Assembly: GCF_000002075.1 (NCBI RefSeq)
Contig: NW_004797773.1
Coordinates: 268,845-332,844, forward strand
DNA length: 64,000 nt
Reading direction: 5' to 3'
From: Aplysia californica
Taxonomy: Eukaryota
Shown here: positions 1 through 44,500 of the stretch, one piece after another
Numbering within the stretch: position 1 is the stretch's first letter
How the letters are laid out: every line of letters begins with the position of its first letter
Program-made: the position numbers and the translations under genes
The notes under the pieces: generated by a model
The model's database searches: none
Told to the model about the DNA's origin: nothing
The model's input: only the letters and a program-made list of their open reading frames with translations

Positions 1-1241
1 TTACAGGGGGTGGGGGGTGGTGGGTGCGAAAAATTTTCAGACAATCTGGTTGAGGCTCACATGCAGGTCTAGTAGTAAGATCGGGGTGCTTGGCTCATAC
101 TGGTGACGACTCTCTTTTCCCAATTATTGGATCTTCCTGTGTGCACTCGCACGCTGTCTCCCACGTCAGGTTCTGGATGACTCTTTGTGTGTCGGTCGTA
201 GTGTTTCTTCTGCTCTATTTTTCTTTGCTGAAGCAGGTTTGGAGCATGAACAGGTAACTGTGGTTTTAAAATCTTGGGATCCGTTGGGACTAGATCTTTC
301 AATTTTCTGCCCATGAGCAGCTGGGCTGGAGAGTACGGCAAACCTGTGATGGGAGTGTTTCTGTATCCGACTAGAGCTATGTTAAGATCAGATCCTTCCT
401 CTGTACATTTCCTGAACAGTGTTTTGACAATGTTGACGAAACGTTCACTTTGGCCATTTGACTGCGGATACCTCGGACTTGATGTTTTGATTTCGAAGTT
501 CCAGCTTGTTGCAAATTCTTTCATCTTGTAGCTGGAGAAAGGCATGTTGTCAGCGAAGAGTACTTGTGGTATCCCATTTCTTCCAAAATTTGGTTTTAAG
601 GACCTGATCACCGACTGTGCTGTTTTGTTGTTCACGTATGCTACTTCAGGATACTTTGAATAATAATCCACCACAAGAAGGTATGATTTTCCCTTAAATT
701 AAAAAATGTCTGCTCCTAGTTTGACCCAAGGGATAGATGGCAGATTGTGAGGAATCATCGATTCCTTACCATTTCGTGGTTGATTGCTAGCGCATATATC
801 ACATTTCTTCGTCTTTTCTTCAATGTCAGTACATATTCTTAGCCAATAGATGCTCTCTCTGGCTCTGGCCTTACTTTTATCGATGCCAAGGTGACTTGTG
901 TGCAGTTTGGTTAATATTTCTTCCCTCATGGTTTCAGGTATGACCATTCTGTTATTGAAGAACAAAATTCCATTTTCCTCATGCATGTCATGTCTGAGTT
1001 TGTAGTTGTGTCTTTCTGTCATTGACATATTTTTCTGTTGAGGCCATGAGTCATTTTTCACCCATTGTAAGACATCTTTCAGTATCTTGTCAGACTTGGT
1101 TTCTTTTTGGATTTCTTTGAGTTTCTCTGTTATGGCAGGCATTGTGGCTGTCGTACAGTGTACTCTCAGTATTTCCTCCAGGGGAATTTCGTGTCTCTCT
1201 TGATGTGTTAATGGTGGTGAGGCTCTTCTCAATGTGTCAGC

Positions 1242-2120
1242 CAGGGGCGAAGCGTCTATATAATCAAATAATCACTGCTTCCCTTTCTAATTTTGAAACA
1301 TTGTCGCTGTCAAATTCATCCTTAAACGTAAACCTCATAAATTAAATGTAAAAAGACGTTCGTAACCAACAACGAACAGTATGCCTAACATTCAAAACGG
1401 TTTCACGGCCACAGAAATAGCCTCCTCACCCCTCTCGGACCACTCCATACGCAGTCGCAAGCTTTGATTAAGTAAGCTTAAAGTGAGGCTGGAATAGAGT
1501 TGAAGGGAACATGTGCATGGCAGTCAAAGCTGTTTCCTTGCCACATATACCCTGTTCACCCCTTTGGGGCCACAGTTAAAATCAATCACAAGCCCTGATT
1601 AAGTAAGCTAACTAACACTGGTCGAGTCTACCTCACAAATGTGAGGGGAACTAACTCTTAATAATCTCTTGACTGCTGCTTGTGCTTGTTTTTTTTCCTC
1701 GACTTTTTACCGTCCTATAATCAGATCGTGACCTCGATTATGACACCAGCTCCTGGCCGCGAAAGGCTAACAAAAACAGCCAAATGTGAAATTTAAAAAA
1801 TAATAATTGTCATGTTCTACCAAAGAGTTAGACTCACTGGTAGATCTATAACATATAGATCTAGTACTGACATCTCTGCTTCTTTGCTTTGTTTATGTAT
1901 TCACATCTAAAGTTAAGTTTAATTTTAGTGGGAACTGATATTTAATAAGATACTTTCCCGATTATTTTGGCGGTTGAACATACAATATGAATTCCGGATT
2001 TGTTTTCATTCACAACTCAGAGTCGCCGCCTCGAGTAAGATTCTTGTGTGATATCTACAGGCCATATCTGGTCCCATTTCACTTTGATTACCCTGTCAAA
2101 CAAGTCAGCCTTCGCCCCTG
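1242..2120. mobile_element. Non-autonomous hAT-type element (879 bp)
   Basis: Perfect 11-bp TIR CAGGGGCGAAG/CTTCGCCCCTG. Perfect 8-bp TSD GTGTCAGC at 1234-1241 and 2121-2128. Splits the Gypsy ADTL codons. Confidence 0.92.
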
Positions 2121-2253
2121 GTGTCAGCAATGTATAGCTGAGATCCGGGTTTGTACTGAACATCCAGTTTGTAATCGGAGTAGTCGTAAGATCATCAGTT
2201 GGGATTCTTGGCGAAGCTTGGTGCAATGGTTTTCTCAAGATCGTCTCTAATAG

Positions 2254-2401
2254 GGAAGGACTTCTGTAACGAGCGACCACTCCATCACACACAATAAAGA
2301 AGAGGCCTAACCCAAACCCAAACCCTAACCCTACGCTAGATTTACCCCTAGCCCTCAATTCTGCTCTGTCTCATAGTGGTCGCTTCTTACGGAAGTCCTC
2401 C
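2254..2401. mobile_element. 148-bp MITE with a telomere-like (CCCTAA/CCCAAA) core
   Basis: About 28-bp imperfect TIR GGAAGGACTTCTGTAACGAGCGACCACT / AGTGGTCGCTTCTTACGGAAGTCCTCC. TSD CTCTAATAG/CTCTAATGG (9 bp, 1 mismatch; 7 bp exact). Interrupts the Gypsy KPLE-TILRK frame. Confidence 0.85.
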
Positions 2402-3077
2402 CTCTAATGGTTTGTAATCACTGATCACCAGTACTTCTCTTCCAAAAATGAATTGGTGGAATTGTTCTGCAGCAAACACTATCGCTAGGAGCTCACGCTC
2501 AATGTTTGCATAGCTTACTTCTGTCTCTGTCAAAGATCTTGATGAATATGCGATCGGTTGGTTGTCCTGGAGCAAGCATGCCCCTAGTCCCTTTGTTGAA
2601 GAATCGCACTTGATTGTCCCTGGCTTCTTTGAGTCAAACAGTTTCAGTACAGGATTTTGGCTCAATATTAATTCTCTTAGTTTGTTCACTGCTTCTGTGT
2701 TTTCAGGGTACCAATGTCTTGGCACATCTTTCTTTAGCAGTATCTCAGTGGGCTTGTTATGGTAGACATATTCGGGATGAATGGGCTCAGGAAATGTACC
2801 TTCCCAAGTAGTCTTTTTGACTCTAGTTTTATCTTCTGGTAGTGGCATTTCACTTATGGCTCTGACCTTTGCAGGGTCTGGTTTTATACCATCCTGGGAA
2901 ATTATTCTTCCCATGTACTTCACTTCTGATTTTCTAAGTTGTGATTTTTTTGCATTAAAATGCACATTGCTTTCTCTTGCTCTGTAAAGCACTTTGCGCA
3001 TGATCTTGTCATGTTCTTCATCGGTTTTGGCTACTATTAAAGTGTCATCAGCCAAACAATGCACTTGCCACGGGATT

Positions 3078-3950
3078 GGTCAGATTTGCGGTCTGGCCCA
3101 AGCTGTACTGTGTCATTTACGTAGCTAGGTCGCTGCTGAAACTAAAGTTTGTCAGATTTGAAAGTTTCCTTTCCAGGTGAAATGATCCATTTCCCTCTCA
3201 CACTCACATTATACTGAATTTTGTATTAAATTAGGCTGCATCATATCATTTATTTGTTTCTCTATGTTCAAGTTCAAGAATATGTTTTTCTTCATTGATG
3301 AAATTGTTTGCCAAATTTAAAGAAGTTCTGAGGCAATTTTTAAAGAAATTTTCTTTCAGTGCTTAAATGGTCAGATTTGCGGTCTGGCCCAAGCTGTACT
3401 GTGTCATTTACGTAGCTAGGTCGCTGCTGAAACTAAAGTTTGTCAGATTTGAAAGTTTCCTTTCCAGGTGAAATGATCCATTTCCCTCTCACACTCACAT
3501 TATACTGAATTTTGTATTAAATTAGGCTGCATCATATCATTTATTTGTTTCTCTATGTTCAAGTTCAAGAATATGTTTTTCTTCATTGATGAAATTGTTT
3601 GCCAAATTTAAAGAAGTTCTGAGGCAATTTTTAAAGAAATTTTCTTTCAGTGCTTAAATGGTCAGATTTGCGGTCTGGCCCAAGCTGTACTGTGTCATTT
3701 ACGTAGCTAGGTCGCTGCTGAAACTAAAGTTTGTCAGATTTGAAAGTTTCCTTTCCAGGTGAAATGATCCATTTCCCTCTCACACTCACATTATACTGAA
3801 TTTTGTATTAAATTAGGCTGCATCATATCATTTATTTGTTTCTCTATGTTCAAGTTCAAGAATATGTTTTTCTTCATTGATGAAATTGTTTGCCAAATTT
3901 AAAGAAGTTCTGAGGCAATTTTTAAAGAAATTTTCTTTCAGTGCTTAAAT
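3078..3950. repeat. Tandem repeat, 3 x 291 bp, apparently identical
   Basis: GGTCAGATTTGCGGTCTGGCCC starts at 3078, 3369 and 3660. No differences seen between copies. Confidence 0.95.
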
Positions 3951-10814: not shown

Positions 10815-13800
10815 TCAGTCTGTTGCCGCCAACATGTCTATCACAGCATCTGCTGATCCCATCTGGTAGAGAAGGTCATTCAAATAACCTTGCTCAACAT
10901 GGGGGAACATCGCTGACACCATCTGAAGGTCAGCATGGTCTGATCTAAGTTCATCAATATGCATCTTTGGTTTCACAGGCGTGTCGCAGCCCACGCTGTC
11001 CCTGAACTGAGGCGGTGAGTTGCGGGTTGTCGGAGAACGACGAGTTACCTGCTGCTGAGTGGCAGTAGCCCGTGCAGCGGTTCTGACTGCCCTAGAGCTG
11101 TACACGGTGCCAGCAGGAGCTGCCTTGACTTGTGGCTTGACATTTTGTGGGGGAGGCTGTCTTTTGGGCTCTGCTTCTCTCAAACGCGGTTGGGGTGGCT
11201 GTTCCGTCGAAGCATTTGAACTTTCAAGCTGCTGTAGAAATGCCTCTCGCTTTCTGTAGAAAGAACAATAAGTAGCAATGATAAGCAACAATAGCATCAT
11301 ATAAAATAAAAATCAATTATACTAAAAAAAAACAAAGACATACAATACAACATCAAGACAAAATACAGCAAAACTTAAGATCAGTCAAACCCCTGCTTGG
11401 CCACCAGTCCAAGTTAATCACATGTAACATACAACCACTTTTCATCCCCCCAGGGCATTAAAAAAATACTATAAAAAAACTGTCCAAGACATATCTAGGT
11501 GTCTAAGACAACCACTGTTCTCCTTGACAATGGGTATCCATCTAGGACAATTTTGACAGGTACCGCATACCTTCAACAAACCATAAATAAATGCACTGTA
11601 AGCCATGAACATAGCAGTCATCTTTCCTTGACCCTGTTAGTGATAATGAATTCCCTCCACATAAAATCACCAGCTGAAAGCTAGAGGTAATTATGTCCCA
11701 ATTTAAAACAGTCAGTTGCAGAAAGTTTTGATTTAAGTTTGAGTAAAGAGAAGCACATCGACACAATAACAGCCATTTTAGGCTGAGGAAAAGCCAGATA
11801 GACAGAGAGAGAGAGAGACAGACAACAGACAGAAAGGAAATTAGTGTACCTCCCAATGGTATCCTCCAATCACTAGTGTTTGGTGTTTTTATCTAAGCTA
11901 AGTCGGAGGGGGGAGCAGACAAAAATTTCCCCAGCACAACATCAGCTCAAAATGTCCCTGCGGTTGACTCTGAATCAGTCACCTGCAACGTAGTTTAGTA
12001 TGATACTTTCTGACATAGACTGCCCCCTCCCACTCTCCCAATTTAGCAAACAGAGAGGAAAACTACACAGAATGTCTTTTTCAGTTTTAGTAATAGTTTT
12101 ACAGCACTTGCAACACAATTAGGTCATATAAGTGCCGAAGATTAGAGGTGTTACAAGAGAGTGACAAACATAAAAAAGGAGGAGAGATATGGACTATAGA
12201 TGGAGCAAACCACACCAGAGCACCCACCAACTGCCCATAGATTATCTTTAAAAAGGTTAAAAAAATCAACAAGACTTCAAAGCTTTTTTTCCTACACAAG
12301 TAAAGAACAGCTCTAAAAATGCTTGTCCCTGTAAATATTTCCTTACCGTCTCACTTCATCTGCTGCAGGAGCTTTTCCTTGACGCATAAGGTTTTGCTCC
12401 GACTGTTCAAGAAATATGGTTAAACACATAATTAAAATAAGTCTTCTTCACACAACTGACATGAAGACGTATCACAATTTGTTTGATTTTCACACTTTTC
12501 CAACAAGTTAATAAGCAATAAGGTCTCCGACTCTGTACAAGGAGGTAACTGACTTATTGAATGTTAGCTTTCCAGATTTAATTAAATGATTTGATCAATG
12601 GCATTCTCAATTTTCTGTTCACCTTCCCCTTGATGCTCTTTCCTTTGGGACTCTTTAAACTATACAGTAGTCTCTGCCTAAACACACAGTGCTTGGGAGG
12701 GCTACTTAGCGTGCGTTTACATGAACCTTTGCAAAGAGATGAAGGGACGCAGTCATCTCATTGCCTTGATATTCTAGTGACCTATTAGTGTAGGGGTCAC
12801 TTTTGCCGATAATGTGACAACACGTGACTGTTGTTTTGTGAAGGATTCCCCGACTGCGGTTAAGAATACAAAGGCGTTCAATGGGGCGGGGGAGGGTAAG
12901 AAAGATAGATGCAAAGTAGTAATGATATGTACAATAAAATGTCGGGAACAGATAGCCTAAGAGGAAACTGTTGGTGATAGTCATAGTCATAGAGACGACG
13001 GCGCAGCCACATGCCTTTCCAAGTGCACACCACCAAACCGTAAATTTACGGATGACATCAAAATCATAGATCTCTATATGTTCAGAGAAACTTTTCTCTC
13101 ATGATTCGTTGAACAAGTACGTTAAATAAGTTCTTTGAGCGCAGCTCATTAGGCTTACTTGACTAATCTTTCATCCTATAGAGGCCTATCTAGTGTTTTA
13201 CAGCATTCACACGTGTTGCACATCATTCATAGGCCTAGGTCTAACTAAAAATTAGTCACCTAAACACCAGTCAGAAACCTTCTCTCAAAGATGCATTTTC
13301 AGTGACCAATCAAAAAGCATTTCAGTTTTTCAGTCCCCCCACCCCCCCTACATTTCACCGACCAGTCCTAGACCTATGTGTCTGCGGAAAGTTGGGTGTG
13401 AAAACGCTGTCCAACACTCTCTTTGTTCGGCGTGAGGGGCAGTCTCACCAAATATCCAGTTGTCTAGGCTTGTCTTATGCAAGCTGTGCAGGTTGTAGAG
13501 AAAATTTCCCCTTGTTTGTCAAGCTTTACCGGTCAGCTTGTTTAGCAGATCGGAGCGTGCGTTTAGAGGGAGTGGCCGTGCGTTTGTACACTGTATCTAA
13601 ATTATACCGTAAAAAACCCATCAGATGACGAAAGCGTGCTTTTGCATGGCATGCGTTTAGGCTGAGACTACTGTACAATTTTATTTTTTTTTAATATTGA
13701 TTTGTTTACTTACTCCTGGGAATATGTCATTTGGTTGTTGCTGACATGCATACATTTATATTCTTTGCCTTATTCTTCTTCGTTCTTAAAATTCACAACA

Positions 13801-16800
13801 CACTAGGCCCACAATGAGAAACAATAGAAGTCAAAATGTTTGGATACAGAGAACGTAAAACTCTACTTACATTCAGAGCACACTATACTTTTATCTTTTA
13901 TCTATTGCATCCTCACTCAAAAACTCAGGAGCCTACCCATAAGCCAATATATTATTTTAAAAATTTCAGTTTGCAACTTTGTTTTTCCATTGTGGTCCTC
14001 ACATTATATTCTCCTACCCACTTGGGTCACTGCATTGCTTTGAATTTTTCTCGTTTTAGTTAGTTTAGTATGGGGTTTTACGGCGCTCGCAATTGCATAA
14101 GGTCATATGAGCGTGCGAAACACAAGTTATTTTTATTCGCAGTTTACTGTACAGCTGGGTACGGGTCATTTGATCTTAAAGCGTTAAAATATTTAAAATT
14201 TGGTGTAAAAATATATTTTCAATCTAAAACAACTTTCATAAAATTTTTTAATAGTTCAATTTTGTTCTACAATGTCCCATAAAGTAAAGGCCAATGGCCT
14301 TCATAAAATCCAAAATTATGTTGGGACCAACAACGGAATAAATGTCATGAAATTTTTTACACTTGAAGTATTTCCTTTGGATCTCTTCGAAGTCTAGACA
14401 TTCGGTTAAAATGTGTCTAATGGTAAAATCTGTGTGGCATAACGGCTTTTCATCTCCCTGAAGAAGGTATTTGTGTGTTAGGGCCATGTGTCCGATGAGT
14501 AATCGAGTAAAAATGACTTTGTCTCTTCTGGAAAGGTCTGAAGGATTTCGCGGTCCCAGTTTGGGTTTAATATTGTGGAGTTTGTTTCCCGTCTGGTTTT
14601 TTCCAGTGGCTCTCCCACAGACTCCATTTTCTCGTTTCCCGCTCTTCAAAAGAGTAATAGTAATAAGCACATAAACCTGCTGAAATATTACAAGCAAAGA
14701 AGTCTTTACTCACTTTTCTTCTTGCCTCAGCCCTTTTCGCCTCAATCTGTTCTTCTTCAGCTCTCTTTGCCGCCTCCCTGTATCCTGCCTGTTTCACCTG
14801 AAACAAAACAAAATAATAATGAAATAATCAACCAAATTTTTATAGCCCCCCCACTCTCATGTGGGTCGCAAGTGTTTTAGATAGATATCAAAATGAACAG
14901 TTTATGGGCCGCCAGGACTGCTTTGGATCTACAATATTGTCCATATTTCAGACATTAAAAGTCTGAGAGCGATGGTTTGCAAAAATCTTCCATTTTGAGA
15001 GTTTGGGTACATTTCTTGCCTTCTACATTCCACTGGGGCCCTGTGGCATCTTTTTCCCAGCTGATGTCATCTATATAACAGTTCTTCTTAAGAAGTTTGA
15101 GAACATGATTGTAAGTGTAAAGTAGTTTCTGTCAGCCTTTTTTCTACCTCTTTCACTGTACCTTTATTGATTTGATGTCTTATCAATGGGGGTGGGGATG
15201 GGGGGATATTGTAGATCCTCTGGGAGATGAGCTTGCTAAATGTTTCTCAACGGTGAAAATGTTATCAAGGCTTTTATGCTTTATGTTTCAATGTTGGTTC
15301 GTTTTTTTAGAAAAAGAGAAGCAAATTGACATAACATGCATAATTTAGGGCAGGGAAAAAGTAAGAAAGACGGATAGAAATATTAGAGGGATTGTAATGT
15401 AAAGGAGTAAAACACACCAGAGGCACCCTCCAACAACCGACAAGATAGTTACATTAAAATATTTGTTTAACTTCCTGTAAGCAGATTAAGTACATGAACG
15501 TTCAGGGTAAAAGATAGTAAAGAAGAGAGTTTAAGGGAAAATTAAAACACATCAACAGTGCTCCGAGAAACAGCCAAACAAGAAGTAGGCAAGAAATGGG
15601 TACCTGGTAAAGTATTGGAAACAAACAGAAAAACCTTAACAATTGAAGAATGTGTGTGTCACGGCGTCCGAAATTCCGTCTCAGCGATCTTTTAGTTAGT
15701 CCGGGCCCCCCGCGGTAGGCCATAAATTAGCGGCAGGTGACCTGCAATTTCACGCGTCAAGTCGGGGATTGACCAGGGTCAACTCGTGCACAGTGCTGTC
15801 CTATCTTGTCCTTATCAGAACGCATTTCTTCCCCTAATTTCATGAGCCGTAAAATGATGCTCACTCTATCCCTAGAATCTATTTCTTCACCAATTCCGCT
15901 TCGTCTACGTCTTCTTGATATCTTGTGAAAGTTTCAACAGTTTTCATTGATTCGTTTGGGAATAATAACAGTTTTAAATTGTGAGTGTTAAGTGATCGGA
16001 AGCGCCGTTAATAATGTTATCTCTTCAAATTTAATTACAAGTCCTTCGAGAATGGAACGATGGTCTTTATTTCTGTTTGCACAGTGTGATAGCCATCAAA
16101 TCATATTTTCTAATGATGTGAATTTTGTTTTTCCAGCACTTTGCGGTGACTGGCAATCAGTTAGTGAATTGTGTTCCTAAGTAAAAATCGTTAAACTGCA
16201 ATGGGTCAGTCACACATATGAGAGGCATAGAGTCTCTGAATGAACTTTGTTGTATGTGTTGGCGTTTAAATTCAACTGTCAAACAAAAAAAGCACAGAAA
16301 GCCCCGACTATGTAAGACAATGGCAGGAGATATTCTCTTGGTTTATGGGATTGATGTGAGGGACGAAAATGAACAGTCGTATTCCGCTAACATTTGTGTC
16401 AAGTGTTTTACCGCGATTTCAACTATCAAAAGGAGATATGGTGTTACGTCACGTCAATTCATGCCGCAAAAAAACAGTTGACACCAGTAGGAACATGTGG
16501 TGTGCGTTTGACAATAGCATAAATGTGAATTCCTTCTCCGTTTTGTCAGTACCGCTTAGGTGGCTGCATACAACGATCCATTTCAAGCTAACATCGTAAA
16601 ACACCCCAATCATACCTCCCCCCATCCCCATGTATGCAAGGAACTAACAAACAATTTATACAGAAACAAGAAAATACTCCCCCGAAACTGCAAAAATTGA
16701 GGAGGCAAGTGGACTGGAAGCAATATTCAATCTTCTCAATGAAAGATTTAGCCATGTTCACACTGCAATATCACATCTGAAACCGTCAAACAATTTTCAC

Positions 16801-19800
16801 TTCCAGAAATCTCCGTAGCAATCGACAATTACATGTCCGCATTCAAACGCTATTTCCCCACAAAGTTATCCCAAAGCCACACATATCATAACAACACTGT
16901 ATTCCACACATACAACAACACATGTTTGCTCTCGGGCTTTTAGGAGAACAGGACACAGAAAGCAGCCACCAAGCGATCTCAAAACTGGAAGCCAGAGCAC
17001 GAAGGATCTCAAACCAGATAGACATAATGCGTTTTATTTTTTGTGTCGCATCTCCTGCAAATAGCCCCCTCATTGCGTGCTACTGGATATGTTTAAAAAG
17101 AAAAATTGTATAAATTTACAGTTTTATTCTGTACATGTTCATTTTGTGAAAAGAAACCGGTGCTGTATATTGAAGATGCGTCAGTATATCATTATTCAGG
17201 AGGATACACAATCCATTGGACACAAAAAGTCATAAATGCAGGGAAGCGTTTTGGCTATCATGCTCATGACAAGTTCCATGTTCGTGCTGGAAACAAAATT
17301 TTGAGTGAGTCAATTTCTAAACACATTTTCCTGTCTTATGTGGCAGTTTTGTAAATATTTATCCTTAGGCTTGTAAGTTATTAGCCATTCAATATGTGTT
17401 TGTTGTTTTGACTAACTATAAATAGACATACATTTTAAGAGCATCTAACTCAAAAACGTGAGCAGCCATGGTATTGCTATTTCGTACCAATAAAGAGGTT
17501 TAGTTGCTTTCTCTAAAGAACAAACTTGTGTTCACGTATTATATTTTTTTGTTTTTGTAAGACGATAAAACATGTGTTGAAAAATTCATTTCACCGGCTA
17601 CCGACGCAGGTAGCGGGAGGGCGGGTTAGTGACCTCTGGGTGACCGGCCCGCCGTGACCCGGTCACTCCATCGCCGATCCAACTAAAAGAGCGCTGTCTG
17701 TACGCCGTGGTGTGCGTATGTGTGTGTTGTGCGTGTGCCTGAGTGTGTGTTTGTGTATTTGGCAGACTCACATCCTGCCATGGCGGTGAGTTTGTGCCAT
17801 TCAATAAACATCATCTCATGGAATTTCCAACCCTGAGAGCCCCAAAGCTACTGAAGACACAATACAGATATTGTTGTAAAGCAAAAAATAAGATGATTTG
17901 TTCCATTTTATTGGAGATGTACATGTTTCTCACCTGTCTGTTATATTTCTGTGCTCTCACTGCGTTGGCCTGTCTGTTCCGCACCTGGTCCTCTGTCAAT
18001 TCACCACCACCTGTGGTTAAGATAAAAATCAATAAAGTTAAATTTGAAAGTTCATAATAAGATCTTAAAATCAAAAGAGGTTATTTATAGACAAAAGTCG
18101 GGCAGGGAAATAAAAGCCCAAAAAGTAAAAAAAATTGTTTAATTCAAAGTCGTTTGTCTCCGTTTTTCTTCATTAGGCTTACTATATCTCCACCTCCTAC
18201 ATGATTGTATGAGAGGATTTTGGAATCTTAAACCCTTCATGCCTAATAATATACATGGTCCACGACGAAAATGCATAATTTTTAGCTTTATGACAAGCCA
18301 TGAAGAAGTTGGAAAAATGTGTCATTCCTGGTTGCTTATAAGACATTACATGCATAAACCACTAATTATCTGGCTCTGATTCTTCTATACAGAAATATAG
18401 CCACAAGAACAGCATGGAATCATATCCAGGAATAAAAAATGCCCATATCAGTACCAAATTTGCAAGCGATCTTGCAGAAAAAAGCTTGCTCTCAGATTTT
18501 TTGATTTTTTTGGTAAGTTTTTTACGGCAAAGTAACTGCATAAGGTTATATGAGCATGCGGGACACATTAAACATTTTCAGTTGGTGGGAAATTTTGAAT
18601 AATTTTGCCCGGGGAGGTGGCCCAAGCCTGCTTTTTCATCGATTTTGGACCACCAAAGGATCTTTAACGTGCTCAACTTGCACACGGGACCTCCGAGATT
18701 TTTCACCCTTGTCCGAGAACGCAATGTGTAGATCTTTCCTACCGTAAAATCAGGAGTGTAGCTGAAAGACAGCAGTAAGAAGGAGCCAAGGAGTAGCAGG
18801 AGAAGGGCTACAGAAAGAGTCAGGAACCCAGAGGAGTGGGCAAAGGAGATGAGGGGCTGGGGGCAGAAAGTGGAGACGAAAGCCAATGACAGAATATTGC
18901 AAGAGAGCAGGAAAGGAGGTGAAAGGAGACCATTTTTTAGAGAAGAAAAGCTTTACTCGCTACAGTCTTGCCATTAAAGGAAGGAACATTCCCGTGCTGT
19001 GGGTGATCAAGGGAGAGTTTATAAATTATTTTCTCAACAAAACTCTACAGAGAACTAAACTAGCACAACAATTTAAACTTCCGTTTTCACCTGATTTGTA
19101 TCTCCTCAAAATCTAAAAGTAGCATTGTATCATAGAATTGACTTTCAATATGAAAAGTGAATATTAATTTTGAAATTTGAAAAGAATGTTGTAAAGAGAT
19201 TATTCTCATACAAACCAGCATGTTAATTAAATTAAGTAAGACAAAATATGAACCATCTCTGAATTACATACCATATATAAGTACCACCATACCATAACAA
19301 TTATTTTACTCAATTTCAAAGCTATGATTTAATAATCCATAAGTATAACCATTATGAAAGAGGTGCTCGAAGGAAGGATGGGGGGGGCAGGAGATCCAGG
19401 AGAAGACAAAGAGAAACATGGGTGAACAACATAAAATTGTGGGCTGGCTTGGATATAGCAGAATGCACAGCGCAACTCACGAGTCAACCCAGAGTCAGAG
19501 ATGACACTTCCAAATTCCATAAGTATCAGCTGCTGAGGAACATACCTACAGTGCCCACATGACGGTAAACTTTCCCAGTATTCTGCTGCTTGTACTGCTC
19601 ATAATTTGCTGTCTCTCTCTGAGCCACTGAAATTAAGAAAGAAGAAAGAATTGAGTGCAAACTTGATGACCTCCAGGCAATGCCTTTCAACAATACAGTT
19701 ATACTTTTGGAATCATAAGTACTGTAATGTATTTTACTGAACTGTACAGGGCAGGGGGTTCAAGAAGTCTTTAGTCTAAATATGAAGGAATAAAGATAGA

Positions 19801-29500: not shown

Positions 29501-32500
29501 TTGTGGGCCGGCATGTGCCTTGGGTGCCTGGCATGGACACCAGTAGCAAACCTGGCTCTACGGAGACAGTTCCTCACCATCTCCTCATCCACGTGGACAT
29601 TGGCTGTCTCCCGTAGTTGGTCCCTGGTGCGGTCTGCAATGGTGGTTCGTGACTTCACGGCCTATCTGACGATGAGCCGGTCGATGCTGTCGTTGGTCAA
29701 ATGGGGCCTCCCTGGTCGAGGCCTGTCCTGGACCCTTCCAGTCGCTCGCCATCATTCTTGCAGCCTCCACATGACTGACGGGGACACCCCAAGTGGACGT
29801 GTAAAGACTCGGAACGTGGAGCTATCTTGGAGCCAGGCAAGGGCTCGTCCTCTGTCAACATCAGGCAGCGAACGTCGTTGACCATCGTGTTGTAATGAAA
29901 CATGGCTGAAAAACACTGGCTTATAAAATAGGGTTATCAAGTGAGCGATGTCCACAGCCGAGACATCTGTTTAACACATGCTAAGCTCAGTTTTAGCCCC
30001 CAATCCCTGTGCCAATATGTTACTGAGGCGGAGAAATTTCACCCACTTTAGATTCTTTTCGGCTGTGTTTCGGCATGCCCTGTGCCGTCACTATGAGGCT
30101 CGTGCGGGCAAATTTGCTGTTTTCTCTATACGCTCATATGAGTAGTACTGCGTTTTTGACTAGATCTAGTTCAAACTGTACAGTATTTTATGGTTTTTAA
30201 ACTCCTGCTTTTTCACCACTCTTCTCAGGGTGATGATATCTGCCCATTTTAACTTTATTAAGGTAAGTTAGGTCTACTGCTGACACCTAATTGTAAAGAC
30301 TGAGCCTCAAATTTTCACATCCTGTTCTTACATTAGATGTGCACATTTATGAAGGCATCTGGTGACCAGATGATCATATCAAAAATAGCTCAAAAGACAT
30401 TCAGGGGCTGGGAAGCGCATGGTCTTAGGATCATCATGGCCTCATTTGGAACTAAGAAAGAACTCGAGGTAAGAGATGGTAGGAAGAAGGTCATTAACAT
30501 GAACATCCTACAAGTGTATGCTCCAACCAATGATCCAGAAGTGGAGAATAAAGACGACTTCTACAACCGCCTGCAGAACGTCATCGACAAACTTCCAGGT
30601 AAAGACATCAACATTGTCATGGGAGATCTAAATGCAAAGGTAGGTTCGGACAATAGTCACAATGAGGAAATCATGGGCAGACACGGGTTAAGAGAGGCAA
30701 ATGACAGCGGAGAAAGGTTCGAAAACTTCTGTACATTCAACAACTTGGTCATTGGAGGTACAATCTTCCCACATAAAAGGATTCACAAGGCCACTTGGGT
30801 CTCCCCGGACGGAACAACGGAAAACCAGATTGACCACTTTTGCATCTCCCGAAAGTTTAGACGCTCACTGGAGGACGTCCGAGTCTTACGAGGAGCAGAC
30901 GTCGCATCAGATCACCATTTGATCCTTGGAAAGATGAAACTAAAACTGAGAAGATATGCACAAGTCGCCGCTGGAAATCATCTAAAGTATGAGAAGAACA
31001 GATTTCAAGCCCTTCAAGATCTGGATGAATGTGAAGTCAACGACTTGATAAGATAAGAGAGGCAGTAAATGCAACTTGCCAGAGCACCCTAGGACCCAAA
31101 GACAACACCAGGGATGAATGGATTTCACAGGACTCTCAAGAAAAAGTCAAAAGAAGAAGAGAGCTGAAGGCCTAAGTCAACAACAGCCATACCCGAACTG
31201 AGAAACTCGCTGCACAACAAGAGTACACTGAAGTAAACCGGGAGGTAAAAAATTCCATCAAGAAGGACAAGAATACCTACCTGAATGGCCTGGCCGAAAA
31301 GGCAGAGAAAGCAGCAACAGACGGGCACTTGAGGATTGTTCACCAGACTACAAGAACTCTTTCAGGTAGGTTCAGCAAGCCCACTCTACCAGTGAAAGAC
31401 AAAGAAGGAAAGACTATCTTCCACCCAGAGGGGCAACTTAACCGATGGAGAGAACACTTTGATCAACTATTGAACAGACCACCTCCAGAAAACCAACCAG
31501 AAATTCTTCCAGCCAGAAATGACCTCCCAATAGTCACGGAACCACCTTCAAGAGAGGAAATTGCAGCCGCTATAAAAACACTGAAGTCCCACAAGGCAGC
31601 TGGTCCCGACCATATACCACCGGAAGCCCTTGAGGCAGAGAAAGATAGGTTTGTGGAAATTCTCTATGCTCTATTTGAAAAAGTTTGGCAAAAGGAGGAA
31701 ATACCATCAGACTGGAAGGAAGGCCACCTAATCAAGCTGCCAAAGAAAGGAGACCTCAGCAACTGTAACAACTACAGAGGCATTACACTCCTTTCCATAC
31801 CTGAGAAAGTCTTCAACAGGATACTCCTGGAGAGAATCAAGCTGGCAACAGATGAGAAGCTTCGAGGAAACCAAGCAGGATTCCGCAAAAACTGATCATA
31901 TGTGGACCAGATCGCTACTCTGCGTATCATTGTTGAGGAATCGCTTGAATGGAATTCACCACTCGTGGTCAACTTCATTGACTATGAAAAGGCGTTTGAC
32001 AGCGTGGACAGGGAAACTCTGTGGAAACTCATGCGGCATTTTGGAATACCTGAGAAATCATTAAGTTTGTGAAGGCCACCTATGATGGAACAAGCTGCCA
32101 AGTCTTCCACAAAGGACAACTCTCAGAACCATTCCGGGTACAGACAGGAGTGCGACAAGGATACAGTCAAACCTGTGTAAGACGGCCACCCATTGTCAAG
32201 GAGAAAAGTGGCCGTATAAGACAGGTGGCCATCTTAGGCAGGACTGAACAAGATGAAGAAAACAAACCATTCCCATCTGAAGTCCCAATCGAAAGTAGCC
32301 GCATTGTTGTTGTTTTTGTTGGTGGTGGTGGTTGTTGTTGGTTTGTATTTTGTTTGTAATTTTTATTTGTTGAATATATATAAATATATAGTGTAAAGTG
32401 CATAGAGCCTGCTGTTGAGCGGGGATATGCGCTATACAAATGCTATCTATTATTATTATTATTTATTTGTTGCTGATTTGCACAAGGGTGACAGTAAAAC

Positions 32501-41500: not shown

Positions 41501-44500
41501 TGTTAGTTTATAGTTTCCAAGGAAACTTAAACTTTGAAAGTCACCAAACTTTGGCGGCCCTTTTCTCGCAAAATTTTTCTAACACCAGGTAACCCACCTC
41601 CTTCAATCACAGAAACCTCCATTTCTATTCAAGACAGATGGATTTTTTTTAAAAATCAAAAGCAAAACAAATGAACAAGCTTTAAAATGATACCAACAGC
41701 TTCATATGTCCAAAAAATTGATGAGTGCCTAATTTCACGCTGCATCACATTTTGCTCAGTATCAGATATCTTACAATTTTTATTTTTTCTAAATTTGGGC
41801 TACCACCTCCCTCTACCAACCTTCCCTGTGTATAAAGAGAAAAATTACCAGACCCGGACAGTCTGGGGCACTTATTTATACTGAGAAGACCCGAAAAGAC
41901 ACCCCAAAAAACCCCAAAAGACCCCAAAAGGCAGCCGAAAAGACACAAATAGACAGCCGAAAAGACCCAAGAAGACAGCCGAAAAGACCCGAGAAGACCC
42001 GAGAAAACCAAAAAAGACACGAAAAGACACTAAATGACCCGAAAAGACATACATGATTTATTTATTTGTTGTTTATTTATTGCTACTGGTTGCAAAAATA
42101 AGCAACTTAATATAGCCACATGGAAATGTGAGAACAATGTACCAGAAAGGCAAATTAGATAGTATAGAGCAGGAAATGGACAGGATGAAGCTAAATATGT
42201 TAGGCCTTTCAGAAGTTAGATGGGAGGGGGCAGGCTCGATTAGAAGAGGATCCAAAACAATTATATATTCAGGAGGAAAAACCCATGAAAGAGGAGTCGG
42301 AATTTTATTTGACGAAGCAACAGCAAAGAGCATCAAAGGTTTTTGGGGAGTTTCAGACAGAGTCATAATGGCTAAATTAGAGGGAAAACCTTCTGACATA
42401 GGTGTCATCCAAATATATACACCAACATCAGAGCACGACAACGAGGAAATTGAGACTTTTTATGAAAACCTTGATAAGGCGATGAAACAGTTAAAATCAC
42501 AAGATGTAAAGGTAGTCATAGGAGACTTTAATGCCAAAGTAGGAAGTACACGTATAGAAGATATAGTTGGGCCATGGGGACTGGGTAGAGAGAATGAACG
42601 TGGGGAACGACTGGTAGAATGGTGTAGAGAAAATAATTTTATGATCTCAAACACCTGGTATGAAAATCTCACAAGAAGACGATACACTTGGAAGAGTCCT
42701 GGCGATAGAAGTGAAAATCAAATAGACTTCATACTTATTCAGAAACGTTTTAGAAATACAATAAAATTATCTAAATCACTGCCAGGAGTGGACTGTGATA
42801 GTGACCATGTACCAGTCATCAACTGTCTTTTCGGGTCTTTTCGGGTTTTCTCAGTATAAATGAGTGCCGACGGTCTGTGTCACAACATCACATACAGTTA
42901 ACTGTAACAGCATAAACACACGCTCTGCATTGAGCCCTTTTAGTTGTAATTGTACAGTGCCACTTTGCCCTAAGAAAAACATTAGACTTTAGAAGTGCCA
43001 AAGCCAGGAGTAAGGAAAACTTTGGGTTGACAAGGTGTTAGAAAATCTTTTCCCTGTTTTGTTGTGGGTGACAGCCTAGGTCAATGAGATAATGGTTTTT
43101 TTTTAGTGAATCTTTGTTTGAACTTTGAAACAATTAGTTAAGGTGAGTGCATGGCAAATGGCCATATTTCTCATTTTTAATCCAGATTACTTTTTTGGGT
43201 GGTTGATTGCCAAAACGTCTGCTGGTGGGTAGGCAGCCCTGTTTATATTTTTATCGTCACGGTGGCCTAAAAAAAGTAAAGTTATTTCTGCATCCGATCC
43301 GGACATTGGGGATTACCTTGTTAGTGAGACAACTTCCTGGGCCTTCGACATTTTGTGGTAGGGTGACCTACATTCAGAATGTAATGAGTTTTTATGTGTG
43401 GGTTTCTCCTTTTTCTTTCTTTTTTTTCTTTCAACAAATTGTATTTGATCATTTGTTCTTTGTTCTTGCCTTATACTGTAATAGATTATAATAGTACTTA
43501 TAATACTGTGAACCTCCCTCAACTCAAAGAACACAAGTGCACTTTGGATTAAAAGCCCATGCATGCACATGCGGTGTCAGTGGCCTAGACCTCTGACTCA
43601 ACTGCAAGGTCATGGCTTCAAATCCTGTCAAGGGCCCAGTTTTGTGTCCTTGGGAAAAATACAACACAAATTTTCCTTGAGCATGTAACCCGCTGCATGC
43701 ACAGTGTGCTTCCAGACTGCCTGAGAAGCTGAAAATATTTCCGAGTCGTGTTCTAGGGTCTGCTGGGGTATGAATGGTTGTAAAGCTCATAGACCATGCT
43801 GTAGAGAGATCGGCGACCTCCAACCTTTAGGCTTGTTTTGGCGTAATAAGCATTTCGGTCTAATGCAATGCCCCTCTACTAATTTATTATATAATGTCCA
43901 GGCTAATAACCTTGACTGCGACTATCATGTACATTGTGTCATTCATAGCAATAAGACAGTCCCTGACTGGTTTTTGAGCAGAGACCAAAGTATGCTTCTA
44001 TGATGAGATGCCAATGCTACCGAAAGCTGACAAAATGCCCTTTTTTATTTTGACACTAATTTTTTTAATTTGCTAAATCGAAAGCCTGATAAGTTATCCT
44101 ACCTATGTGAAAAAAATCAAACAAAAACTGTGACTCCTTTTTGAATAAATTAGAATCCAAATTTGAGAAGAACGCTATTTTAAAATGATTGCGCTGACAA
44201 AAAGTCTCTTTGTCTCGAAACTGCTGTAAGTTTTGTCAGCTTACAGCAAAATGCCCCTACCTGCATCACCCCACATCGTTAATCGCTTGTTTTAAAAGTT
44301 TGATTACACATACTCCCCAGATAATTGTTGCTAACGACCAAGGCAGGTTTTTTTTGTTTTTTTAAAAAAGTGTCAATTTGTATATTTCTTTATGTGTATG
44401 TATATCATTAACATTTGTCATTGCCTTTACAAGCTCTGCTTTTTTCAAACGATTCAAAGAAAGTCTATTCTTTGAGGGGGGGAGGGGGTGTTATCCGGCC

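Follow-up and report, generated by a model that had tools for sequence, protein, structure and literature searches.

Chapaev transposons were reportedly introduced by Kapitonov and Jurka in 2007 (Repbase Reports), and N-RAG-TP of Aplysia californica is said to have been described by Panchin and Moroz in 2008. The accessible parts of the papers that treat Chapaev elements give them 5′-CAC..GTG-3′ termini, a 4-base-pair (bp) target site duplication (TSD), a DUF1280 domain, a Chapa finger, C(2)C and H(4)H motifs and a single gene (PMC4079192, PMC4411706, PMC3985635, 10.64898/2026.01.24.700457), and related Chapaev3 elements a 3-bp TWA TSD with CAC termini and a Chapa domain (PMC4079192, PMC3014272). 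N-RAG-TP, as cited in the available text, is a mollusc element with a RAG1-N-terminus-like protein (PMC8355894, PMC8374863, 10.1101/100735). How the 12/23 rule arose is a matter of debate, and work after a 2021 review (PMC8355894) traces asymmetry to Transib and RAG-like elements. Asymmetric bipartite ends are already published for both (PMC1131882, PMC9435367, 10.1101/2023.08.20.553239); in the passages available, ends like the recombination signal sequences (RSS) RSS12 and RSS23 are reported for Transib5, Transib2_AG and TransibN1-3_AG (PMC1131882) and for subgroup I Transibs (PMC9435367), a 10-bp asymmetry for PflRAGL-A (10.1101/2023.08.20.553239) and 4/13 spacers for AanRAGL (PMC9435367). 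Here we describe a Chapaev element in a 64,000-nucleotide (nt) stretch of Aplysia californica DNA (assembly GCF_000002075.1, contig NW_004797773.1, positions 268,845 to 332,844, forward strand; hereafter the window), together with its relatives, and find that one long and one short end form a conserved, apparently undescribed feature of the Chapaev lineage.

The element at 15660..17709 derives by deletion, with near certainty, from a Chapaev cut-and-paste transposon; it is young, ordinary and without coding capacity. An initial annotation of the window had reported that both ends begin with CACGGCG (5/7 against the RSS heptamer CACAGTG) and reach a shared block, CTTTTAGTT, after 22 nt on the left and 13 nt on the right. 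Measurement in the window gives the same tips and the same two spacers, and the block, as had been said, is not the RSS nonamer, being of the T-rich YTTAGTT type. The features are as follows.

15660..17709, + strand: non-autonomous Chapaev element, 2050 bp, an internal deletion derivative of the 3808-bp parent L021
15656..15659, + strand: TSD, left copy GTGT (4 bp); empty allele in runs X6 and X12
17710..17713, + strand: TSD, right copy GTGT (4 bp); empty allele in runs X6 and X12
15660..15666, + strand: 5′ (long) end, heptamer-like tip CACGGCG
15667..15688, + strand: 5′ spacer, 22 nt; most sister families have 23 and two have 25
15689..15697, + strand: 5′ second block CTTTTAGTT; TTAGTT is invariant at the 5′ end in 11/11 families
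15718..15729, + strand: motif GGCCATAAATTA, at the 5′ end only; its distance varies among sister families
15736..15782, no strand: 5′ subterminal TGACC/GGTCA words, in part palindromic
16212..16542, + strand: relic of the N-terminal Chapa zinc finger, frameshifted
16576..16619, + strand: approximate site of the deletion, which removed about 1.75 kb of parental sequence, plus a second small gap; placed by family consensus against parent, good to a base or two in window positions
16853..17078, + strand: relic of the transposase C-terminus, with PKxH..H zinc ligands (stop inside) and GEQxxE with the catalytic glutamate
17629..17667, no strand: 3′ subterminal TGACC/GGTCA array
17681..17689, - strand: 3′ second block CTTTTAGTT
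17690..17702, - strand: 3′ spacer, 13 nt (13-14 in all sister families)
17703..17709, - strand: 3′ (short) end, heptamer-like tip CACGGCG

The asymmetry is not a private indel of the window copy. A search of the Aplysia genome returned 44 matches (40 scored of 158 candidates), mostly full length and of 90-98% identity, which sets the copy number at 40 or more as a lower bound; divergence from the consensus is 0.9-2.8% in 19 of the best 20 copies, L016 being left out of this range. Among the 40 loci examined, 36 have both ends and four lack one. The block ends at nt 38 from the 5′ tip and nt 29 from the 3′ tip in 35/36 two-ended copies and at 38/28 in the remaining one, such that the 9-nt spacer difference is fixed across the family. 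The predicted 4-bp TSD flanks 32/36 of these copies and a 5-bp TSD none (0/36); the TSDs have 39% G+C and no consensus. The (GT)n surroundings make the TSD doubtful in the window copy taken alone. Contigs of runs X6 and X12, from two studies, carry the empty site, with exactly 2054 bases skipped and four letters fitting both sides, and therefore the insertion is polymorphic and the duplication is of four bases. A 5-bp or 3-bp TSD is ruled out by the 36 two-ended copies together with this empty allele.

Does the long/short layout extend beyond this one family? Transposase matches were examined in 40 loci, and ends were called without use of the block, on CAC..GTG termini with at least 7 of 8 tip bases alike and a TSD of at least 4 bp; several chance end pairs were set aside for want of sister copies. 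TSD-bounded pairs were obtained in 14/40 loci and define families A-G, all of them asymmetric. Families H, I and J were added via single-end scans and pattern matches, which do use the tip or the block. In these ten families of the Aplysia genome and in L065 of another assembly, both tips read CAC(A/G)GC, and TTAGT(T/C) finishes 38-41 nt from the 5′ terminus and 29-30 nt from the 3′ terminus. The last block base lies at 5′/3′ positions 38/29 in family A, 39/29 in B, D, E, G, H, J and L065, 39/30 in C, and 41/30 in F and I; the equivalent distances in the RSS are 39 and 28, so that the block sits at nearly the nonamer's distance. The long end lies upstream of the transposase gene in every family. 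Spacers measure 22-25 nt at the 5′ end and 13-14 nt at the 3′ end, the typical family spacing is 13/23 with an offset of 10, and the 9-nt offset of the window family is one variant of it. For a 9-nt block ending TTAGTT, a boundary on which the count depends, 8/11 families fall within one base of 12 and 23 nt; C (14/23), F and I (both 14/25) fall outside. All window-family copies, and all related families in which both ends were called, are thus asymmetric and do not have symmetric terminal inverted repeats. The invariant TTA occupies positions 24-26 and 34-36 in 7/11 families; nonamer positions 5-6, which are essential according to the available part of PMC1131882, correspond to 24-25 and 35-36.

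The comparison between families argues strongly that the block and its spacing are kept by selection. Identity among the 11 families is 0.86 over tip positions 1-7, 0.36-0.39 in the spacer, 0.97-1.00 over the last six block bases and 0.30-0.31 behind the block. The best 5′/3′ offset is 9-11 in 12/13 elements; shuffled ends reach 9-11 in 8% of cases each, and given the kinship of the families these figures yield no independent p-value. The next conserved 5′ motif lies anywhere from 58 to 147 nt in, and distances here can therefore drift, yet the block distance does not. One alternative is that a single ancestral insertion was inherited as a frozen accident, its length free of selection. The families are indeed kin, forming one tree (quick trees only, built from rows other than RAG1, Transib and named Chapaev elements) and not independent observations, their transposase cores are 39-66% identical, and their lengths vary by 1-3 nt; however, the spacer sequence has been replaced almost entirely and other distances nearby differ by tens of bases, whereas the block ends stay at 38-41 and 29-30 over 35-66% protein identity, which leaves this explanation highly improbable. 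It is also improbable, if slightly less so, that the additional 10 bp form a further binding site, as a duplicated unit like CCGAAA/GAAATC, and not a spacer. An internal repeat of about 10 bp does occur in the long end of families B and C, and a shortened copy described below lost exactly that unit, but the between-family spacer identity of 0.39 is near the 0.31 found behind the block and no common word occurs except in the last few bases ahead of the block.

A search with the two relic peptides of the window copy for a full-length element found longer relatives, L021 and its sister L023. L021 is 3808 bp long, with the same ends, its own TSD, 83-90% identity to the window family and a gene in three frames. 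The window family retains parent nt 1-917 and the last 1.1 kb; the lost 1.75 kb or so include the region like a nonamer-binding domain (NBD) discussed below and both catalytic aspartates. L023, the family B element, has an intact, intronless, 940-amino acid (aa) open frame (L023:2990-5800) between TSD-bounded ends, and a second open copy is L024. The finger and PK.H..H peptides noticed in the initial annotation are both present in the window but broken: the finger frame runs from 16212 to 16433 and its W sits in another frame (16477-16542), and the C-terminal segment (16853-17041) has a stop within PKxH..H.

The assignment to Chapaev agrees with the earlier proposal and draws on every feature listed for the group: a 4-bp TSD, which the sister families show as well, 5′-CAC..GTG-3′ termini, DUF1280, the Chapa finger, and the DDE triad together with C(2)C and H(4)H. 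Pfam DUF1280, which the available text equates with Chapaev (PMC3985635), scores above the curated cut-off in L021 (E 1.3e-10) and family B (E 5.2e-15); the corresponding stretch is deleted from the window copy. The N-terminal finger of family B, H-x3-L-x3-C-R-x-C-G, matches exactly the Chapa pattern given in the accessible part of PMC1131882; in Pfam it matches RAG1_imp_bd (E 3e-4) and zf-AD (E 2e-4), both below cut-off. The window finger is 44% identical to it, and in family A the first finger His is missing at the expected place. The family B triad is D483, D554 and E888, with C573/C576 and H862/H867; the triad is found in 11/11 families, with single His changes in family A and G copies, and the window copy keeps the E segment only. 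Each of nine full-length elements (3.8-5.2 kb) has a single transposase gene, and the RAG2-like partner frame that the initial annotation suggested looking for was not found in them, nor do they leave space for one; their other frames of at least 150 aa are three of 167-179 aa, not searched further. The named homologs of the family B enzyme come from the sea slugs Plakobranchus and Elysia, where they are mislabelled amine oxidase, and no relatives were found in viral contigs.

An AlphaFold model of family B residues 245-935, made with 70 sequences, has a predicted local distance difference test score of 93.5, and its top structural match is RAG1 (Foldseek E 2.5e-15). Superposition on RAG1 chain 6oep_A gives Z 29.3 and a root mean square deviation of 3.8 over 461 aligned residues, and on 5zdz_A Z 27.1 and 4.4 over 522, with model residues 62-690 placed on chain residues 391-1008. 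The Z values are 24-29 for RAG1, 24.9 for HzTransib and 24.7 for BbRAG1L; the next family, the P element, reaches 11.0, and Hermes is also far below. The window peptides thus belong to a Chapaev transposase whose predicted model matches RAG1. Sequence identity in the RAG1 superpositions is 14-16%, and since a PDB sequence search with the 940-aa protein gave nothing under E 0.27, the RAG1 link rests on fold. In several RAG1 chains the first aligned residue of the model is 61-62, opposite 391-392 of mouse or 409-410 of zebrafish RAG1. This is where the nonamer-binding region starts, placed at human RAG1 387-480 in the available part of PMC1131882, and the alignment thus takes that region in. The model therefore predicts a Chapaev transposase core with the RAG1 fold and a helical region where RAG1 has its NBD. 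This NBD-like region, at residues about 300-370, has xRK followed by a basic helix, the R and the K each being present in about 80% of 70 rows. Modeling of the finger (score 94.6) gave weak matches to ZAD domains only, with Z up to 4.5 and the RAG1 N-terminal finger not listed, and a Pfam RAG1 (PF12940) search of the Aplysia genome gave no match, nor did its positive control.

How would such an enzyme read ends of two lengths? We propose that the catalytic domain would cut at CAC and that the NBD-like region would bind the TTAGT block, the latter being quite probable. A dimer of the NBD-like region, tilted as in the RAG complex described in the accessible text of 10.1101/2023.08.20.553239, would span blocks whose distances from the cut differ by one helical turn, and selection would for that reason keep two distances and not the spacer letters. 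The long and short ends would then probably be read by a RAG1-like transposase that pairs one long with one short end, as with 23- and 12-RSS; the window copy, immobile alone, would be moved in trans by the full-length enzyme of its own family. It is likely that a long-end/short-end design like that of the 12/23 rule also operates in the Chapaev group. Part of the earlier suggestion, that a non-RAG lineage may use an asymmetry of roughly one helical turn, holds for the layout throughout the lineage, and its use by the enzyme as a pairing rule is something we infer. A true long/short pairing preference has about an even chance.

The main rival explanation is that the block is a real binding site on the same helix face at either end, each end keeping its own distance and the enzyme accepting any two, with the asymmetry kept for another reason such as promoter room or unequal subunit loading. 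With a 10-bp shift the block does stay on a single helix face, a further motif is confined to the 5′ end, a RAG2 partner is absent, and invertebrate RAG-like enzymes have been proposed, in the available part of PMC7204232, to be rather insensitive to asymmetry. However, the polarity is fixed in 11/11 families and in four single ends of other assemblies, and inward-facing neighbouring motif pairs on contigs C1-C26 are long/short in 26/26 cases. These pairs are copies of about ten families and not independent, and they include two mini-elements under 400 bp that have no gene to drive, L096:4509-4902 (394 bp) and L101:496-767 (272 bp), each with one long end, one short end and a 4-bp TSD. We regard this explanation as unlikely, while giving it appreciable weight. 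A family C copy, L095:2116-3788 (G000:C3:342615-344287), has lost 10 bp between two GAAATC words of its 5′ end, which yields a nearly symmetric 29/30 element with the TSD TCGC. The shortened end has two matches genome-wide, with shared flanks and no others, and no spread was seen; as a single case, this failure to spread fits a pairing rule. Genome-wide pattern counts were 740 against 287 in the control at 29-30 nt, 148 against 190 at 31-37 nt and 1090 against 870 at 38-41 nt, where the control is high, and show a clear excess in the short class only. A candidate tip-plus-block family at 36 nt was ruled out as internal to an unrelated 1.67-kb repeat (L091-L094), which has inverted ends of about 38 bp, copies 90-95% identical to each other and no Chapaev homology.

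Several observations weigh against long/short pairing by an NBD-like dimer. Pairing and binding are put forward here on sequence and predicted fold, and the lack of long/long and short/short elements is weak evidence, as hybrids of this kind could just be uncommon. Read on the heptamer strand, the block is rich in T, whereas RSS and Transib nonamers are A-rich. The NBD-like region aligns in some RAG1 chains only; in many rows the alignment sets in at about 124-127, at the hinge, which would be natural if the domain is mobile. Its motif is xRK and not GRPR/K (R in 12/12 rows that cover it, from families with the block, P before it in 6), and the glycine-arginine of the AT-hook is absent; the RAG1 counterpart is presumably GGRPR at 389-393. 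No TSD-bounded pair was obtained in 26/40 loci, and the family-less L050 and L059 have tip-like words without the block, so symmetric families may exist. L067, an element between TSDs with 27-35% identity to the others, has no TTAGT and shows no clean offset in the scan; a gapped alignment suggests an offset of 11-12, and this locus may be a variant or a counter-example. Four off-pattern tip-plus-block matches in other assemblies (24, 28, 31 and 36) are taken, without proof, as chance, being internal or wrong-facing. Moreover, RAG1 without RAG2 has no 12/23 preference according to the available part of PMC8355894, and the Chapaev elements here are without RAG2.

In 5/30 loci from other assemblies an end with the block lies on the side and strand expected of it, and most of the others are partial or without recognisable ends. 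The 5′ block ends lie at 39 (L061), 39 (L065) and 40 (L073) and the 3′ ends at 29 (L065, L083, L131), in elements whose transposases are 35-48% identical to family B where measured. L131 and L132 (JBHNNM010000362.1, JBHNNM010000856.1), short contigs of a bacterial metagenome bin, carry a Chapaev transposase with a 29-type 3′ end and are most likely mis-binned host DNA. L088:1485-1775 (Ga0316188_10021331) holds a 28-bp tandem repeat adjoining a Chapaev fragment, some units of which read CACAGTG, 12 nt and a T/A-rich 9-mer, a pattern that may be chance, and L085:4468-4629 (WLWI01018979.1) has a threefold repeat of a 55-bp unit that lies downstream of a Chapaev-like gene, and every unit starts with a CACGG tip-like word.

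The GGTGACC-type subterminal motifs of the initial annotation were also borne out: TGACC/GGTCA occurs three and four times within the 260 subterminal bp, where the interior frequency would predict 0.18. These words occur in most families, 40-300 nt in and often as inverted pairs in a G+C-rich zone (0-6 per end against 0-0.5 per equal interior length), and are possibly auxiliary binding sites. The 5′-only motif reads GG(C/T)(C/A)AT(A/T)AAAT(C/T)A in sister families, with four tandem copies in family G, and its reverse complement resembles what we take to be a Pbx-Hox site; the motif, GGCCATAAATTA in the window, may be a promoter element or possibly a host-factor site. Elsewhere in the window lie retroelement relics (69-3079, 30337-31895, 42116-42859), with reverse transcriptase, RNase H and integrase on the - strand and endonuclease and reverse transcriptase on the + strand, and no host gene was found among frames of at least 150 aa near the element, save a weak CUE match at 10818-11312. 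A truncated copy of family C is followed, after about 0.6 kb, by a 563-aa SHQ1 frame (L036:4008-5696; G000:C40).

Against the known systems, taken as the accessible text describes them, the elements differ in distinct ways. Chapaev as published is like them in termini, TSD length, domains, motifs and single gene, and has plain terminal inverted repeats, with no second block, long/short layout or NBD-like region mentioned in the text available. N-RAG-TP is alike by description only, as a mollusc element with a RAG1-N-terminus-like protein, and families A-J may include it or the ACa families of Chapaev in Repbase. Transib shares the CAC tip, a second block, an asymmetry of about one turn and a single transposase of RAG1 fold, but has a 5-bp GC-rich TSD, an A-rich nonamer and no Chapa finger, and its 5′ end is the short one (PMC1131882) whereas here it is the long one; membership is rejected by 0/36 such TSDs, the 39% G+C and the T-rich block. 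RAG-like transposons and the 12/23 RSS of RAG1/2 share bipartite ends, a 9-11 bp asymmetry and the core fold, but have RAG2(L) and a 5-bp TSD, neither of which is found here, and GRPR/K (PflRAGL-A, RAG1), where the elements here have xRK; the lack of a RAG2-like gene in the nine full-length elements speaks against RAGL membership, though a RAG1 core fold is predicted. Chapaev3 shares CAC termini and the Chapa domain, but the TSD here is 4 bp in 32/36 copies and without consensus, which excludes that group with its 3-bp TWA.

No published asymmetry of Chapaev ends was found in searches of full-text literature, a coverage that leaves out the two founding papers, Repbase Reports, figures and supplements. 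The accessible part of a 2021 review confines asymmetry outside V(D)J recombination to some Transibs (PMC8355894), and since it cites the N-RAG-TP paper yet names Transib as the sole case, it suggests that the N-RAG-TP paper shows none; if that paper does show spacer asymmetry, the novelty falls sharply. We tentatively hypothesize, as a so far unpublished idea, that Chapaev transposases impose a 13/23 rule by themselves, needing no RAG2, by means of an NBD-like dimer that reads TTAGT, and that both design and reader come from an ancestor shared by Chapaev and Transib/RAG. The intact 940-aa single-gene transposase, with its own ends and TSD, makes a single-protein test of a 12/23-like rule feasible. 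A distinct lineage that combines a 4-bp TSD, a different block and reversed polarity with the same distances would imply either that the geometry predates Transib or that this fold reaches it repeatedly.

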